Notes under the pieces: model-generated
The model's database searches: none
Told to the model about the DNA's origin: nothing
What the model saw: the letters and a program-made list of their open reading frames with translations, nothing else
Source: Escherichia phage vB_EcoM-E33
Length of the DNA: 64,000 bases
Reading direction: 5' to 3' (one strand)
Sequence record: OL780484.1
Shown: in pieces, positions 13,049-39,751 of the stretch
How positions within the stretch are numbered: the first letter of the stretch is position 1
Layout: every line of letters starts with the position of its first letter
Translations under genes and position numbers: made by a program

Positions 13049-13214
13049 GATTTCTGTATTCGAGTTATTCGAAGAATATGAAATCATATCAAAAGACCAA
13101 GAAGCTATCCATATTATTGCTGATGATGGTGTGACTTGGATTATTCCACTTTACCACGAAGATACCTATGAAGTCACTGATGCAAATGGTGATAAAGCTA
13201 TTTTCGTAATATAA
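13023..13214 (+). CDS. Hypothetical protein (63 aa)
   Basis: ATG 13023 after SD AAGAAGGGAA; ORF track 13005..13214 same frame. Confidence 0.4.
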   Translation: MSAMCTGSKISVFELFEEYEIISKDQEAIHIIADDGVTWIIPLYHEDTYEVTDANGDKAIFVI

Positions 13215-13217
13215 ATA
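13210..13217 (+). promoter_or_regulatory. T4-type late promoter TATAAATA
   Basis: Exact TATAAATA ~14 nt upstream of SD AGGAG of the small ORF at 13231. Confidence 0.4.
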
Positions 13218-13230
13218 AGGCCAGGAGCCT

Positions 13231-13392
13231 ATGAAATCTTTTAAAGAAGTTATGAACGAAGATATGGTCGCAGGCGATGCAGGTGGTAACCCATCTAATA
13301 TTGCCTCCGGAACTACCTCAGGCGCGGTCGTCAACAAAGGGCCTGAACAAATCCCATCTAAAAAGCGTAAAGAAAAATCCGAAAACGAATGA
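13231..13392 (+). CDS. Small hypothetical protein (53 aa, Gly/Ser-rich, basic C-terminus)
   Basis: ATG 13231 with SD AGGAG; below 60-aa ORF-track cutoff; preceded by TATAAATA. Confidence 0.35.
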   Translation: MKSFKEVMNEDMVAGDAGGNPSNIASGTTSGAVVNKGPEQIPSKKRKEKSENE

Positions 13393-13430: not shown

Positions 13431-14459
13431 ATGTCATATGTCGATAGAGAATTTGCTGTACGTGCCTTGAATTACCAACCTAAATTCAGACAAGTAACCG
13501 GTAGTGATTTTAAATTAAACTGCCGTTGTCGTGTATGTGGCGACTCCCTAAAAGATGAGAACAAAGCTCGTTTTTGGGCCTATCCGGCCAATGACGGCTC
13601 CGTAATGCTGCACTGTTTTAACTGTGACTATTCAGCAGGAATTAAGAAGTATCTATACGAATATGAGCCTGATTTATATCGAGAATATATTCTTGAGAAA
13701 CATAAAGAGCAATCGTTCGGGAGACAAGCTGCACCTAAGGTGGAGATATCAGAAAAGATTAAAGCCAAGATGCCTGTCATCGAAAAGCTTAATTTCTGTG
13801 AACGTCTGGATAGAATGCCAAAGGACCATCCTATTATCAAATATGTAACACTACGTTGCATTCCTGAAAACAAATGGAATCGCTTATGGTTTACTAAAGA
13901 ATGGCCGGCATTGGTGAACTCTGTCAATCCAGGGACCTATTCTAAAGAAATGCCTGAGCCTCGTTTGGTTATTCCAATTTTCAATAAGAATAAACAAATT
14001 GAAAGTTTTCAGGGTCGAGCCTTACGTAAAGATGCTCCACAAAAATATATTACAATAAAAGCTCATGACCAAGCTACAAAAATATATGGAATGGATACAG
14101 TTGACGAACGTCAGTTGGTGTGGGTAATGGAAGGCCCTATTGACTCTTTGTTTGTTCCGAATGCAATAGCAATTACTGGCGGGTCGTTGGACTTGGCTAT
14201 GGTTCCATGTAAAGAAACTCGTGCCTGGGTAATGGACAATGAACCCCGCCATCCTGACACAATTAAGCGTATGCAACGATTAGTTGATGCTGGCGAAAGG
14301 GTTCTATTCTGGGACAAGGCTCCATGGCCTTCTAAAGATATAAATGATATGATTATGAAAGATAAAGCTGATATAAATGATGTACTGGCATATATGAAAG
14401 CTAATATAGCCCAAGGTCTAATGGCTAAAATGAGACTTTCAAAATATTCTAAAATTTAG
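13431..14459 (+). CDS. 61: DNA primase gp61 (zinc-binding + TOPRIM)
   Basis: 342 aa, same length as T4 gp61; Cys4 zinc motif CRCRVCGDS…CFNC near N-terminus. Confidence 0.9.
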   Translation: MSYVDREFAVRALNYQPKFRQVTGSDFKLNCRCRVCGDSLKDENKARFWAYPANDGSVMLHCFNCDYSAGIKKYLYEYEPDLYREYILEKHKEQSFGRQAAPKVEISEKIKAKMPVIEKLNFCERLDRMPKDHPIIKYVTLRCIPENKWNRLWFTKEWPALVNSVNPGTYSKEMPEPRLVIPIFNKNKQIESFQGRALRKDAPQKYITIKAHDQATKIYGMDTVDERQLVWVMEGPIDSLFVPNAIAITGGSLDLAMVPCKETRAWVMDNEPRHPDTIKRMQRLVDAGERVLFWDKAPWPSKDINDMIMKDKADINDVLAYMKANIAQGLMAKMRLSKYSKI

Positions 14460-14656
14460 GCAGGAACTCCGCTAAAGAATCCAATTATGCTTAATACGTG
14501 TTCCATTGTAACCGCTGGTAAAATTATCCCTTGGCTAGCGGCTACAGGGACTACTAGAAGATTCCAAAGGAATACGTCTAGCGCAAGAAAACCTAACATC
14601 ATTTTCTTGTCTTTCTTTTCGGCCAATTTCCAGATTTGGTAAAAAATACTGCCCAT
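14456..14656 (-). CDS. Small hydrophobic membrane protein (66 aa), antisense to early gene block
   Basis: Strong SD AGGAGG 6 nt before ATG; exact late promoter TATAAATA upstream on - strand; convergent with gene 61 stop. Confidence 0.55.
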   Translation of the reverse strand: MGSIFYQIWKLAEKKDKKMMLGFLALDVFLWNLLVVPVAASQGIILPAVTMEHVLSIIGFFSGVPA

Positions 14657-14677
14657 GTTATCCTCCTGTTAAATTAA

Positions 14678-14685
14678 TATTTATA
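14678..14685 (-). promoter_or_regulatory. T4-type late promoter TATAAATA (minus strand)
   Basis: Reverse complement of tatttata at 14678-14685; ~20 nt upstream of the antisense gene SD. Confidence 0.5.
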
Positions 14686-14718: not shown

Positions 14719-15375
14719 ATGAATTACGAAAAAATATACCAGGAATTAATATCTAAAGGAAAATTAAGAGGTTCTAAGCGGTCTTTATCATATTATACGG
14801 AAGAACACCATGTTATACCTAGATGTATGAATGGTTCTGATGATAAAAACAATTTAGTTGCTTTATTGCCAAGAGAACACTTTGTAGCTCATAGGCTTTT
14901 AACAAAAATATATCCCGAAGTAAAAGGTCTACATTATGCTGTTAATTTAATGAGATATAATAAAGGAGTTAAATTAACTAGTAGAACTATAGCCACGTTA
15001 AGAGAAAATAACGCTAAAGCATTTTCAGGAAAAAATAACCCGATGTTTGGTAAACCTTCCTGGATTAGAGGGATGAAAACTCCTGAAGAAACTAAAGCCA
15101 AAATGCGCCTGGCTCATAAAGATAAAATTATATCTGATGAAGCCAAGGCCAATATGAGTAAAGCTAGAAAAGGAAGATTTAGTGGTAAAGATTCCCCTAG
15201 ATATGGTTTGCCGAATCCTAGGCGTGGAGAAATATGGAATAGTTACGATATGCTTTACGAATTATGGGTTTACAATAATAAACCTAAACGCACCAAATTT
15301 AATAAAATAGCTGTTGATAATGGATATCCTGATATTTGTTATCGACGAATGATAGAAAACTTTAATAGGAAATAA
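14719..15375 (+). CDS. Free-standing HNH homing endonuclease (218 aa)
   Basis: HNH motif EEHHVIPRCMNGSDDKNNLVALLPREHFVAH; C-terminal repeated GKNNPMFGKP / GKDSPRYGLPNP DNA-binding-like modules; AT-rich coding sequence; inserted between 61 and 56. Confidence 0.8.
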   Translation: MNYEKIYQELISKGKLRGSKRSLSYYTEEHHVIPRCMNGSDDKNNLVALLPREHFVAHRLLTKIYPEVKGLHYAVNLMRYNKGVKLTSRTIATLRENNAKAFSGKNNPMFGKPSWIRGMKTPEETKAKMRLAHKDKIISDEAKANMSKARKGRFSGKDSPRYGLPNPRRGEIWNSYDMLYELWVYNNKPKRTKFNKIAVDNGYPDICYRRMIENFNRK

Positions 15376-25668: not shown

Positions 25669-27486
25669 ATGATTAAGAATGAAATTAAAGTACTGTCCGA
25701 CATTGAACATATCAAAAAACGTAGTGGGATGTATATTGGCTCAAGTGCTAATGAAGCTCACGGTCGATTCCTGTTTGGTAATTTTACACAGGTAAACTAT
25801 GTTCCTGGACTGGTTAAATTAATTGATGAAATCATTGATAACTCTGTCGATGAAGCTATTCGTACCAATTTTAAATTCGCAAATAAAATTGATGTTCAAA
25901 TTAAGAATAACCAGGTTTCAGTTTCTGATAATGGTCGTGGTATTCCACAAGCAATGGTCACCGACCAAAATGGTGAACAGATTCCAGGTCCTGTAGCTGC
26001 ATGGACTATTCCAAAGGCAGGTGGTAACTTTGGAGATGACGCTGAGCGTAAGACAGGCGGCATGAATGGTGTCGGTAGTAGTTTAACTAATATCTTCTCT
26101 GTTTTGTTCACAGGCATCACCTCTGATGGTGAGAATGAGATTACTGTTAACTGTTCAAACGGAATGGAAAACAAAGGTTGGTCTACTAAGAAATCTAAAG
26201 GTAAGGGTACTTCGGTTATATTCACCCCAGACTTTAATCATTTCGAAGAAAATAGCCTGTCACAAATTTATCTGGATATTACATTAGACCGATTGCAAAC
26301 TCTGGCCGTAGTTTATCCTGATATTCAATTTACTTTTAATGGTAAAAAAGTAGATGGCAACTTTAAAAAGTATGCTAAGCAATTTGGTGAAGACTTTGTA
26401 ATCCAAGAAACCGATAATGTTTCGATGGCGTTCACTCCTTCTCCGGATGGATTCCGTCAACTGACTTATGTAAACAATATCCACACCAAGAATGGTGGCC
26501 ACCACGTTGAATGTGTATTCGATGATATTTGTGAACACCTTCTGCCAGGCATTAAAAAGAAATACCGTGGAATTGAAGTAACTAAAGCTCGTGTTAAAGA
26601 ATGCCTTACGATGGTGATGTTCATTCGTGATATGAGCAACATGCGTTTTGATTCACAGACTAAAGAACGTTTGACCTCTCCTTTTGGTGAGATTCGCAAT
26701 CATATCCAAATTGATGCTAAAAAAATTGCTCAAGCCATTCTTAAAGTTGATGGGTTGATTATGCCTATCGTTGAAGCTGCTTTAGCACGTAAATTAGCAG
26801 CTGAAAAGGCTGCCGAAACTAAAGCCGCTAAGAAAGCTTCTAAAGCCAAGGTCCATAAGCATATTAAAGCTAACCTATACGGCAAAGATGCTGATACAAC
26901 CCTGTTCCTAACCGAAGGTGATTCCGCTATGGGTCCTTTCATTGAAGTCCGTAATAAAGACCTTCAAGGTGGCTATCCATTACGTGGTAAGGTTATGAAT
27001 ACCTGGGGAATGACAGCAACAGATATCATGAAGAACAAGGAACTATTTGATATCTGTGCAATCACTGGATTGGTTATTGGTGAACCCGCAGAGAAAACCA
27101 ACTATCGTAATATTGCTATTATGACCGATGCCGATGTGGATGGTACTGGTTCGATTTATCCATCATTGCTAGCCTTCTTTAGTCAATGGCCTGAATTGTT
27201 CGAACAAGGCCGAGTACGTTTCTGTAAAACTCCGGTAATTATTGCCCAGGTTGGTAAAGAACAGGAATGGTTCTATGATGTGCCTAGTTATACCAAAGCT
27301 AAGGATTCTCTACCAAAACATTCTATTCGTTATATCAAAGGACTAGGTTCTCTTGAGAAAGCTGAATACCGTCGAATGATTCAAGACCCTAAATTTGATG
27401 TGGTTCAATTACCTGAAGATTGGAAAGAACAGTTCGAAATGCTCCTTGGTAATGACCCTCAACTCCGTAAGGCCTGGATGTCGTAA
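25669..27486 (+). CDS. 39: DNA topoisomerase II large subunit gp39 (GyrB-like ATPase + TOPRIM), contiguous 39+60 equivalent
   Basis: 605 aa; GHKL ATPase and TOPRIM-like regions; single uninterrupted ORF. Confidence 0.92.
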   Translation: MIKNEIKVLSDIEHIKKRSGMYIGSSANEAHGRFLFGNFTQVNYVPGLVKLIDEIIDNSVDEAIRTNFKFANKIDVQIKNNQVSVSDNGRGIPQAMVTDQNGEQIPGPVAAWTIPKAGGNFGDDAERKTGGMNGVGSSLTNIFSVLFTGITSDGENEITVNCSNGMENKGWSTKKSKGKGTSVIFTPDFNHFEENSLSQIYLDITLDRLQTLAVVYPDIQFTFNGKKVDGNFKKYAKQFGEDFVIQETDNVSMAFTPSPDGFRQLTYVNNIHTKNGGHHVECVFDDICEHLLPGIKKKYRGIEVTKARVKECLTMVMFIRDMSNMRFDSQTKERLTSPFGEIRNHIQIDAKKIAQAILKVDGLIMPIVEAALARKLAAEKAAETKAAKKASKAKVHKHIKANLYGKDADTTLFLTEGDSAMGPFIEVRNKDLQGGYPLRGKVMNTWGMTATDIMKNKELFDICAITGLVIGEPAEKTNYRNIAIMTDADVDGTGSIYPSLLAFFSQWPELFEQGRVRFCKTPVIIAQVGKEQEWFYDVPSYTKAKDSLPKHSIRYIKGLGSLEKAEYRRMIQDPKFDVVQLPEDWKEQFEMLLGNDPQLRKAWMS

Positions 27487-27530
27487 TAAATATGTATGGT
27501 ACTAATTGGTGCCATACAAAAGGAGACTTT

Positions 27531-27692
27531 ATGAGAAAGTACTGGGTTACGCTCGTCACCGGTGAATACGGTTATATCTGGACTGATACTAGACCTCAGT
27601 TTGCAGAATACGTGACTATTACAGTCGAGACATGGGACGGCGAAGTTTACCAAACCCGCGGACAAGTCTATAAGGTCGATTCAAGTAACTAA
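27531..27692 (+). CDS. Small hypothetical protein (53 aa)
   Basis: ATG 27531 after SD AGGAG; ORF track 27492..27692. Confidence 0.4.
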   Translation: MRKYWVTLVTGEYGYIWTDTRPQFAEYVTITVETWDGEVYQTRGQVYKVDSSN

Positions 27693-38825: not shown

Positions 38826-39101
38826 ATGACTAAAATTGAAATTGTTTCCGAAATTGCTACTATTGTTTCCATTTTGATTAAAACGGATTGTGAAGACATC
38901 ATGCAACGTCGTGATGAGTTTATTGCCTTTTTGAATGAGTTGGGTATTCGTAATGAACATGGAAAGGAACTTAATGGTTTGTCTTATAACAAATTATTTA
39001 AGTCATTAACTGAAGATGAACGTGACACTCTTATTGAGCAATTTAATGAAGGGTATGAAGATATACACCGTTACTTAATGATGTATACCTCCAATTTCTA
39101 A
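38826..39101 (+). CDS. asiA: Anti-sigma70 factor AsiA
   Basis: 91 aa; …IAFLNELGI…LIEQFNEGYEDIHRYLMMYTS matches T4 AsiA. Confidence 0.92.
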   Translation: MTKIEIVSEIATIVSILIKTDCEDIMQRRDEFIAFLNELGIRNEHGKELNGLSYNKLFKSLTEDERDTLIEQFNEGYEDIHRYLMMYTSNF

Positions 39102-39751
39102 CGTGTTCGACCTAATGTCCTCCCAGCCTGACCGCACATAGACGAAAGTCTAGGAAATCCTAAATCCGGTTTGATATCATACCAGTACAACGATATCGAG
39201 CCGGCGTAGACGTTATCCAAATTAAAAAACGGGCACGAAAACATATACGTGAATTGTGTTTTCTTCTTTGTAGGAAGGAACACAGTTTCGGTACTTGATT
39301 CAAAATAGTTCCCGTTAACTCCCGCCATATATTCTACTGACGTTTTGTCAATTGGAAACCCTCCCGTGTTTTTTGCGTCTACCGTTTCCGGTAATTTACC
39401 CTCGTAAGCCACCATATCCACAAAATAATTCATGTTGGTCGGTCTAAAAGAATATATTGCTGTGAAGTCTGCGCCTGAAGAAGAATGCACTATTCGGAGC
39501 TGCTCGATAGCCGCAATTTTAAATCTATTGTCCTGGTCTTGTCTAATCATTTCAGTATAAGAGGCATAAGTAGTCTCTTTATAAAAGTTTAGAATATACT
39601 CGCCTTTATACCAAACCAATGCCATAAAGAACAATAATATTACGACTAGGACCCGGGAAAAAACTACTTTCCCGGAAGAAGTATCTTTAAAAATTCTATC
39701 AAGAAGTCCAAAAAGTAGGTCTGATAATGATATTCCTACTTTTGGTTCCAT
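39098..39751 (-). CDS. t: Holin T
   Basis: 217 aa; …LSDLLFGLLDRIFKD…VWYKG…NYFVDMVAYEGKLP… matches T4 holin; SD AAGGAG; late promoter upstream. Confidence 0.95.
   Translation of the reverse strand: MEPKVGISLSDLLFGLLDRIFKDTSSGKVVFSRVLVVILLFFMALVWYKGEYILNFYKETTYASYTEMIRQDQDNRFKIAAIEQLRIVHSSSGADFTAIYSFRPTNMNYFVDMVAYEGKLPETVDAKNTGGFPIDKTSVEYMAGVNGNYFESSTETVFLPTKKKTQFTYMFSCPFFNLDNVYAGSISLYWYDIKPDLGFPRLSSMCGQAGRTLGRTR

Follow-up and report, generated by a model that had tools for sequence, protein, structure and literature searches.

What is a small gene with a late-type promoter doing on the strand opposite to the early replication genes of a T-even phage, is it a gene at all, and what might its product do? 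These questions are raised by a 64,000-nucleotide (nt) stretch of the genome of Escherichia phage vB_EcoM-E33 (sequence record OL780484.1; hereafter the window), on the minus strand of which an open reading frame (ORF) of 66 amino acids (aa) converges with gene 61, encoding the DNA primase. An earlier note on this DNA had pointed to an exact TATAAATA late promoter box, an AGGAGG Shine–Dalgarno (SD) sequence, an ATG and the convergent ORF, all of which are present on the minus strand (Table 1). It had also proposed that they make up a small membrane-protein gene, reversed within an early block and served by a late-type promoter and a strong SD sequence, and this description is now backed by comparative evidence.

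A conserved coding sequence under purifying selection

A tblastn search with the ORF matched about 140 phage records at E ≤ 0.01, and about 950 records were matched at E ≤ 1 when a paralogue from phage VR7 was the query. Comparison with the homologue in Klebsiella phage Marfa revealed 38 third-position differences against 4 second-position differences, with proportions of synonymous (pS) and non-synonymous (pN) differences of 0.79 and 0.13. The ratio of non-synonymous to synonymous substitution rates (dN/dS) was 0.09–0.37 in ten computable pairs and 0.50 in the most divergent pair, with dS saturated in the other five. The ORF’s own frame had the best codon score of the six; this score was low in absolute terms, like that of the holin gene t, as expected for a hydrophobic protein. 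The earlier note had held that poor conservation and atypical codon usage would speak against a gene; instead, the ORF is kept across T-even relatives and sits near holin t in its codon usage.

The product belongs to a defined protein family. Residues 1–64 match positions 1–64 of the 65 in the phrog_2024 hidden Markov model (HMM; E = 5.8e-28, 97.5 bits), and the T4, STP4-a, JD18 and PEi20 subtypes match the same model. With phrog_2024 the ORF shares this full-length match, its size, its position convergent with the primase gene and a WN..P..G..P motif, and no difference was seen that would set it apart from the family. Phages QL01, WG01 and E33 each have an annotated hypothetical protein of the same sequence. 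Elsewhere, members carry names such as RB32ORF030w, RB69ORF029c and VR7ORF033w, or appear as ‘hypothetical protein’ in QL01, WG01, Marfa, JD18, S16 and others; phrog_2024 is without an assigned function, Pfam entry or solved structure. No paralogue turned up when every six-frame ORF of the window was searched by HMM. Together, these results identify the ORF as, almost certainly, a real protein-coding gene.

A late-type promoter box kept in every lineage examined

The TATAAATA box lies 21 nt upstream of the ATG and is followed by the AT-rich TTAATTTAAC, an arrangement that matches the definition of a T4 late promoter, namely a box about one helical turn before the transcription start site (TSS), AT-rich sequence beyond it and no −35 element (PMC2988020). 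On this basis, transcription is predicted to start near 14672. A late-type box lies 12–22 nt from the ATG in every lineage examined, and the flanks diverge. The box reads TATAAATA in the window, Marfa and ZX14; AATAAATA in most Dhakavirus, HX01 and T6; GATAAATA in T4; CATAAATA in copy A of VR7/VR26, PEi20 and JD18; and ATTAAATA in CF1, STP4-a and SEA1. Judged by sequence, these variants fall within the T4 late-promoter classes of PMC2988020, where 32 of 50 late sites are perfect, 9 have A at −13 and most others show single deviations, one of the two exceptions being a TA-to-AT change. The SD is likewise kept in all orthologues examined, as AGGAGG, GGAGG or AAGGAG.

We considered whether the perfect TATAAATA had been made by the junction of the neighbouring mobE insertion, and rejected this, as the alignment puts the insertion boundary a further 45 nt or so upstream and shows only a local change between AATAAATA and TATAAATA.

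Taken alone, the octamer occurs in the window at the chance rate (6 seen versus 6.5 expected from dinucleotide shuffles). The NATAAATA sequence, counted on both strands, is depleted, with 11 sites versus 24.6 expected under a first-order Markov model, which is consistent with selection against stray late promoters. At seven of these 11 sites, an SD, an ATG and an ORF of 50 aa or more follow within 45 nt, an arrangement for which 0.02 cases were expected and a maximum of 1 was seen in 300 simulations. Among the seven are soc, holin t, gp34 and gp36, all known to be late genes, which serve as internal positive controls.

A chance ORF that happens to stand beside a chance promoter-like octamer, and has no function, might have been suspected from the chance frequency of TATAAATA in this AT-rich window and from the lack of annotation in T4, JS98 and IME08. 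It fails to explain purifying selection, synteny across genera, the conservation of both box and SD, and membership of an HMM-defined family; promoter conservation and purifying selection in effect already refute it on sequence grounds, and we regard it as extremely improbable.

No convincing sigma-70 promoter was found before the ORF. Because the late-type box is kept and such a promoter is missing, late expression is the best inference for this gene; with the membrane topology predicted below, we hold with good confidence that it encodes a late-expressed membrane protein.

Distribution and synteny in T-even phages

The gene lies between genes 61 and 56, on the opposite strand and convergent with the primase gene, in at least nine T-even-type genera: Tequatrovirus (T4, T6), Mosigvirus, Dhakavirus, Gaprivervirus, Jiaodavirus, Kanagawavirus, Moonvirus, Gelderlandvirus and Marfavirus. 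T4 itself has an intact 66-codon homologue (NC_000866, 17738–17938, plus strand; locus L005, 3239–3439), inside the 309-nt gap between dam and 61, where RefSeq has no feature; GATAAATA and AAGGAGG stand upstream of it. The homologue is also unannotated in JS98 and IME08. The gene is absent after the primase gene in a Krischvirus (RB49 species), in the more distant Klebsiella T4-like phage Snake_ER16 and in an Aeromonas Tulanevirus. Gaprivervirus has two divergent tandem copies, one T4-like and one Dhakavirus-like (VR7, L002 2295–2770; VR26, L012 1795–2201). A late-type box precedes the first copy alone; the second, intact in VR26, carries a frameshift close to its 3′ end in VR7.

In phage T6 (L031 2517–2760, minus strand of the locus), ATT stands where the start ATG is expected. 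The RefSeq coding sequence (CDS) of T6 starts from an internal Met far from the SD, giving 61 aa, and is labelled ‘putative head morphogenesis protein’.

The earlier note had called the arrangement unusual. This stands for the genome’s own layout: in ABTNLS3, the closest annotated relative, 72 CDSs surround the site in 42.5 kb and the homologue of the ORF is the sole one on the opposite strand. Across the group, the reversed gene is instead a standard and ancient trait of T-even phages, not one peculiar to E33.

The stop codons of the ORF and of gene 61 share 4 nt, as they also do in T4, Marfa, CF1, STP4-a, VR26 and PEi20. This overlap is not universal, with a 17-nt spacer in JD18, a 2-nt gap in SEA1 and, in one metagenomic lineage, a 124-aa gene lying between the two. 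The spacer of JD18 (Jiaodavirus, L007 2175–2191) holds a GGGGC-UUCG-GCCCC hairpin that is absent from phages with overlapping stops and is likely to be a two-way terminator or a stabiliser. Obligatory coupling of the gene to the primase 3′ end is ruled out by the arrangements in JD18 and at L035.

On the minus strand of the window, no terminator-like site was found 3′ of the ORF, and the downstream RNA fold was no better than shuffled (z = +1.25), so that a late transcript would run on antisense into gene 61. Might the RNA, rather than the protein, be what matters, with late antisense transcription through gene 61 (and perhaps 41) shutting off primase and helicase synthesis and the ORF being secondary? 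Read-through into gene 61 is expected from the missing terminator and the overlapping stops, and the convergent overlap is widely conserved. T4 late transcripts arise on either strand, with some sites transcribed on both strands at different times (PMC2988020). An antisense-only role, however, leaves unexplained the strong selection on the amino acids, the SD and the frame. The prophage homologues described below are unrelated to any primase, and the JD18-type hairpin, or the extra gene between ORF and primase in the metagenomic lineage, means that antisense read-through into gene 61 is not conserved. Because the protein is under selection and some lineages separate the ORF from the primase gene, an antisense effect cannot be the main function, and we consider this explanation improbable; as a side effect of transcribing the ORF, it is plausible.

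A predicted single-pass membrane protein with one conserved motif

Residues 1–18 of the product are basic and amphipathic, residues 19–41 are strongly hydrophobic (hydropathy peak of 2.05 over residues 20–38) and the last 25 carry acidic or no net charge. In all subtypes, the N-terminus is net positive and the C-terminal part is acidic or neutral. An AlphaFold2 model built on a 25-sequence alignment placed helices at residues 3–11, 17–41 and 51–62, with a predicted local distance difference test (pLDDT) score of 65.8. Hydropathy and the 17–41 helix of the model thus agree on one clear predicted transmembrane segment, in line with the membrane peptide that the earlier note had proposed. As the N-terminus is basic, the positive-inside rule would place it in the cytoplasm; distant members of the family, with hydrophilic N-terminal extensions of 40–50 residues and no signal peptide, agree with this N-in orientation. 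We therefore predict a single-pass inner-membrane protein, N-in/C-out, in which residues 1–18 would be cytoplasmic, residues ~19–41 would span the membrane and the remaining ~25 would form a Pro-rich turn and a short amphipathic helix in the periplasm.

Conservation is concentrated in one region. W31, N32 and P37 are invariant, with very little variation at A39, G43, P47 and G63; conservation peaks in residues 28–52, which take in the outer helix half and the Pro-rich segment beyond it, and the motif W31-N32-x4-P37-x-A39-x3-G43-x3-P47 is the only strongly conserved part of the protein. Confined as it is to the outer helix half and the segment beyond, conservation marks this as the likely working surface, and the segment probably contacts another envelope protein.

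Searches for known domains or folds pointed nowhere else. Pfam gave nothing consistent for the ORF and all 25 alignment members, NCBIfam and PADLOC yielded no match above chance level, no hit of a PDB profile search fell below E = 0.16, and Foldseek against BFVD returned family members only, matches outside the family being insignificant.

Distant relatives in a prophage lysozyme module

An exhaustive profile search of 1.84 billion representative proteins yielded only 21 with E ≤ 0.001. The weakest third of these keep the pattern [WY]N-x4-P-x5-G-x2-LP-x2-P-x-[DE]E, and one distant member, P0134, matches phrog_2024 on its own at 1.3e-9. The contigs of the distant members are siphovirus-like enterobacterial prophages in which the gene lies just after the tail-tip gene; siphovirus-type homologues were not found in the cultured-phage collection. 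The surrounding module contains a T4-type lysozyme, an 81–98-aa protein that combines a transmembrane segment at its N-terminus with a coiled coil, a homologous pair of proteins of ~180–196 aa and ~105–117 aa, and homing endonucleases. For P0125, P0132, P0133 and P0134, the T4-type lysozyme gene is within ~1.5 kb, and P0134 heads a tight four-gene operon with the lysozyme gene last.

One example is a ~32-kb prophage-like element in yegD of Escherichia coli EC28 (NZ_CP049101.1, ~1879769–1911511; L051 20036–23114, and L052), whose terminase and portal genes are fragmented. Its right end encodes a DUF2730-like protein, a T4-type lysozyme, a GIY-YIG remnant, a 196-aa/106-aa pair and the phrog_2024 homologue WP_047667744.1. 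With this right-end segment (3.2 kb, running from the tail tip up to yegD) as the query, matches over 80% or more of its length were found in 25 of 5426 complete E. coli genomes. Within the ~32-kb element, no other muralytic gene and no annotated holin were found, and the phrog_2024 member is one of its few membrane proteins. The neighbour of the lysozyme, with its transmembrane and coiled-coil segments, is named ‘DUF2730 family protein’ by PGAP, although its Pfam score of 22.3 bits is just under the cut-off of 24.9; the Mu gp25 releasin, a lysis protein encoded no more than five genes away from the endolysin, belongs to DUF2730 (PMC9239132). The lysozymes of the module have no N-terminal hydrophobic segment and so, on our reading, are without a secretion signal and need a hole-former.

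Other functions can also be proposed. The protein could be an envelope exclusion or protection factor that, like Imm, Sp, Cor and Llp, blocks entry of superinfecting DNA or envelope damage, or counters a membrane-acting host defence. Exclusion and accessory genes such as cor and lom sit at the prophage end near the attachment site, and in three prophage contexts the homologue is last or nearly last after the tail-tip gene, by the attachment site. The clear subtypes, together with the two divergent tandem copies in Gaprivervirus, are as expected under diversifying pressure, and the conserved motif is on the periplasmic side. The timing fits poorly, however: the exclusion genes imm and sp of T4 are early genes, whereas the ORF has a late-type promoter only. 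A dN/dS of 0.1–0.35 is moreover ordinary purifying selection and not the mark of an arms race, and neither PADLOC nor another family gave a match. On balance, we think an exclusion role unlikely.

Alternatively, the product could be a late membrane factor for some other process, either an anchor or chaperone for virion assembly at the inner membrane or a small depolarising toxin. The prophage members always stand beside the ~180–196-aa/~105–117-aa pair, which matches ‘minor tail protein’, and the T6 RefSeq record and some relatives carry the head-morphogenesis label noted above. The product is also small and hydrophobic like type I toxins, and one weak Ldr_toxin match (E = 0.1) was seen. The tail match is itself weak, however (E = 6.8e-8 and 5.9e-4), the pair has no homologue in the window and the Ldr match is at chance level, making this explanation a doubtful one that we rate low. 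We discounted the ‘head morphogenesis’ label, which has been propagated by similarity without experimental basis; the same T6 record applies it to the unrelated 61.1 gene too.

A possible accessory role in lysis

The account that we favour, tentatively, is of a late membrane protein that takes part in lysis. RNA polymerase directed by gp55 would transcribe the ORF late from the TATAAATA box, opposite to all surrounding early genes, and the consensus SD would give efficient translation. The product would then join holin T in host lysis as an accessory factor, holin-like or antiholin-like in its action. A lysis-related role is a possibility that we prefer without calling it probable, its basis being the distant homologues only, that is, guilt by association. 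Of the roles that the earlier note had suggested, namely lysis timing, superinfection exclusion and a toxin-like function, lysis alone has gained such indirect backing. The account as a whole, of a gp55-dependent late single-pass inner-membrane protein that works outside the membrane as a lysis accessory factor, we would give somewhat less than an even chance. A more specific form is that phrog_2024 is an unrecognised part of T-even lysis or lysis inhibition, shared with the prophage lysozyme/releasin-like module and binding holin T, RI or a spanin through WN..P.A...G...P; this is speculative, and we advance it as a working idea.

Several observations weigh against this account. The product does not have the charged, hydrophilic C-terminal tail typical of holins; its C-terminus is hydrophobic (…SIIGFFSGVPA) and its charge is N-terminal. 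No holin-family match was found in Pfam, NCBIfam or the PHROG lysis families. T-even phages already have holin T, encoded in the window at 39098–39751, and extensive hunts for rapid-lysis (r) mutants of T4 are not known to have identified any gene between 61 and dam. The confidence of the AlphaFold2 model is only modest. The GATAAATA box of T4 and the ATT start of T6 also count here, and they suggest that expression strength may vary between phages. In the prophages, the contexts all represent one homologous module, which therefore counts as roughly one observation, and we weighted the lysis link modestly as a result. The phrog_2024 member is linked at least as tightly to the ~180–196-aa/~105–117-aa pair as to the lysozyme, it sits at the end of the prophage, a common place for accessory genes that have nothing to do with lysis, and at prophage locus L047 no lysozyme was found nearby.

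Genomic setting and other candidate late promoters

The features of the locus are collected in Table 1. The area around the ORF shares 98.7% identity with Salmonella phage ABTNLS3 and 97% with Escherichia phage IME08, and by its sequence the window is from a T-even phage of the JS98/IME08 type (Dhakavirus). Upstream of the ORF, the divergent neighbour is the mobE-like gene, followed by the dCTPase gene 56. The alignment shows that the mobE-like gene has been inserted by comparison with JS98 and QL01, in which the divergent neighbour is gene 56 itself. This slot between the ORF and gene 56 is variable, containing dam in T4 and small ORFs in Marfa, ZX14, PEi20 and CF1, and being empty in JS98 and T6.

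Table 1. Coordinates of the reversed ORF, its expression signals and its neighbours in the window.
Feature	Position	Strand	Details
66-aa ORF (stop included)	14456..14656	−	ATG 14656–14654, TAA stop 14458–14456; phrog_2024 small membrane protein MGSIFYQIWKLAEKKDKKMMLGFLALDVFLWNLLVVPVAASQGIILPAVTMEHVLSIIGFFSGVPA
Shine–Dalgarno AGGAGG	14662..14667	−	5-nt spacer to ATG
T4-type late promoter box TATAAATA	14678..14685	−	exact match, 21 nt upstream of ATG
Convergent stop overlap TTAG, 4 nt	14456..14459	both	66-aa ORF stop and gene 61 stop
Gene 61, DNA primase, 342 aa	13431..14459	+	100% identical to IME08 gp61
MobE-like HNH/NUMOD3 homing endonuclease gene	14719..15375	+	Pfam NUMOD3 and HNH; mobE in IME08

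Two further sites in the window deserve mention. An exact TATAAATA at 13210–13217 (plus strand) stands 13 nt before a 53-aa ORF (13231–13392, plus strand) that immediately precedes gene 61, in the position of the T4 61.1 homologue, which suggests that the early strand, too, has a putative late promoter. It is overlapped by a weak terminator-like hairpin of the minus strand (13230–13218). In the region 27485–27692 (plus strand), AATAAATA overlaps the end of the topoisomerase large-subunit gene (25669–27486) and is followed by the SD and ATG of a small ORF of 53 aa (27531–27692), which has a longer form from 27492. This ORF is possibly another small gene in the early block driven by a late promoter.

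What the locus adds

The existence of the ORF is not new, as it is deposited as a hypothetical protein in many genomes and is in a PHROG family; no mention of it was found in the full-text literature searched. For T4, a differential RNA sequencing preprint reports 150 phage TSSs, of which 22 are antisense (bioRxiv 2024.04.04.588121). Relative to the literature searched, what is new is the recognition of a conserved, putative late-promoter membrane protein gene of essentially all T-even phages, including T4, where it is unannotated; its place as the lone reversed gene in the early block; and its distant relatives in a prophage lysozyme module.

T4 is a reference for phage gene regulation and lysis. 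The gene adds a conserved, probably late membrane protein to the T-even core set, offers a specific candidate for how lysis or lysis inhibition is controlled at the inner membrane and provides a clean natural case of a late promoter facing head-on into an early replication gene. Should the protein turn out to be dispensable and its loss to have no phenotype, the annotation of T4, JS98 and IME08 will still have been corrected; if it does act in lysis, an ancient lysis component would have been missing from the annotation of T4, the best-studied phage.

Comparison with known systems

No toxin family was matched above chance level, as would be expected of a type I toxin-like peptide. The Ldr_toxin match came from a single member at chance level, and the overlap with gene 61 is of 4 nt at the 3′ end and not in a regulatory 5′ region. 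T4 Imm and Sp are likewise small envelope proteins of T-even phages from the same early region, and imm and sp homologues are nearby; they differ in being early genes on the early strand with unrelated sequences, whereas the ORF has only its late-type promoter. The Mu gp25 releasin (DUF2730) is also a small, single-pass membrane protein of a lysis module, and a DUF2730-like gene adjoins the distant homologues, but it is oriented N-out/C-in, has a 73-aa cytoplasmic domain (PMC9239132) and shows no sequence similarity to phrog_2024; it is a neighbour and not a relative.

The remaining comparison is with holins and antiholins (T4 T and RI, lambda S and the pinholin S21). From these the product differs in having no sequence match to them, in its charged N-terminal domain and in standing beside no endolysin gene in T-even phages. 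One UniProt entry for a homologue is named ‘Holin’; we set aside this label, found in few records, as a propagated or automatic name without evidence. The description of a holin as a small protein with at least one transmembrane domain does apply, by hydropathy and by the predicted AlphaFold2 helix at residues 17–41. The distant prophage homologues, all of one module, lie within ~1.5 kb of a lysozyme gene, in one case in the same operon, and share that module with an endolysin and a releasin-like protein. Like holins and antiholins, the product is a small and predicted late inner-membrane protein, and in orientation, predicted to be N-in/C-out, it agrees with T4 T and RI.

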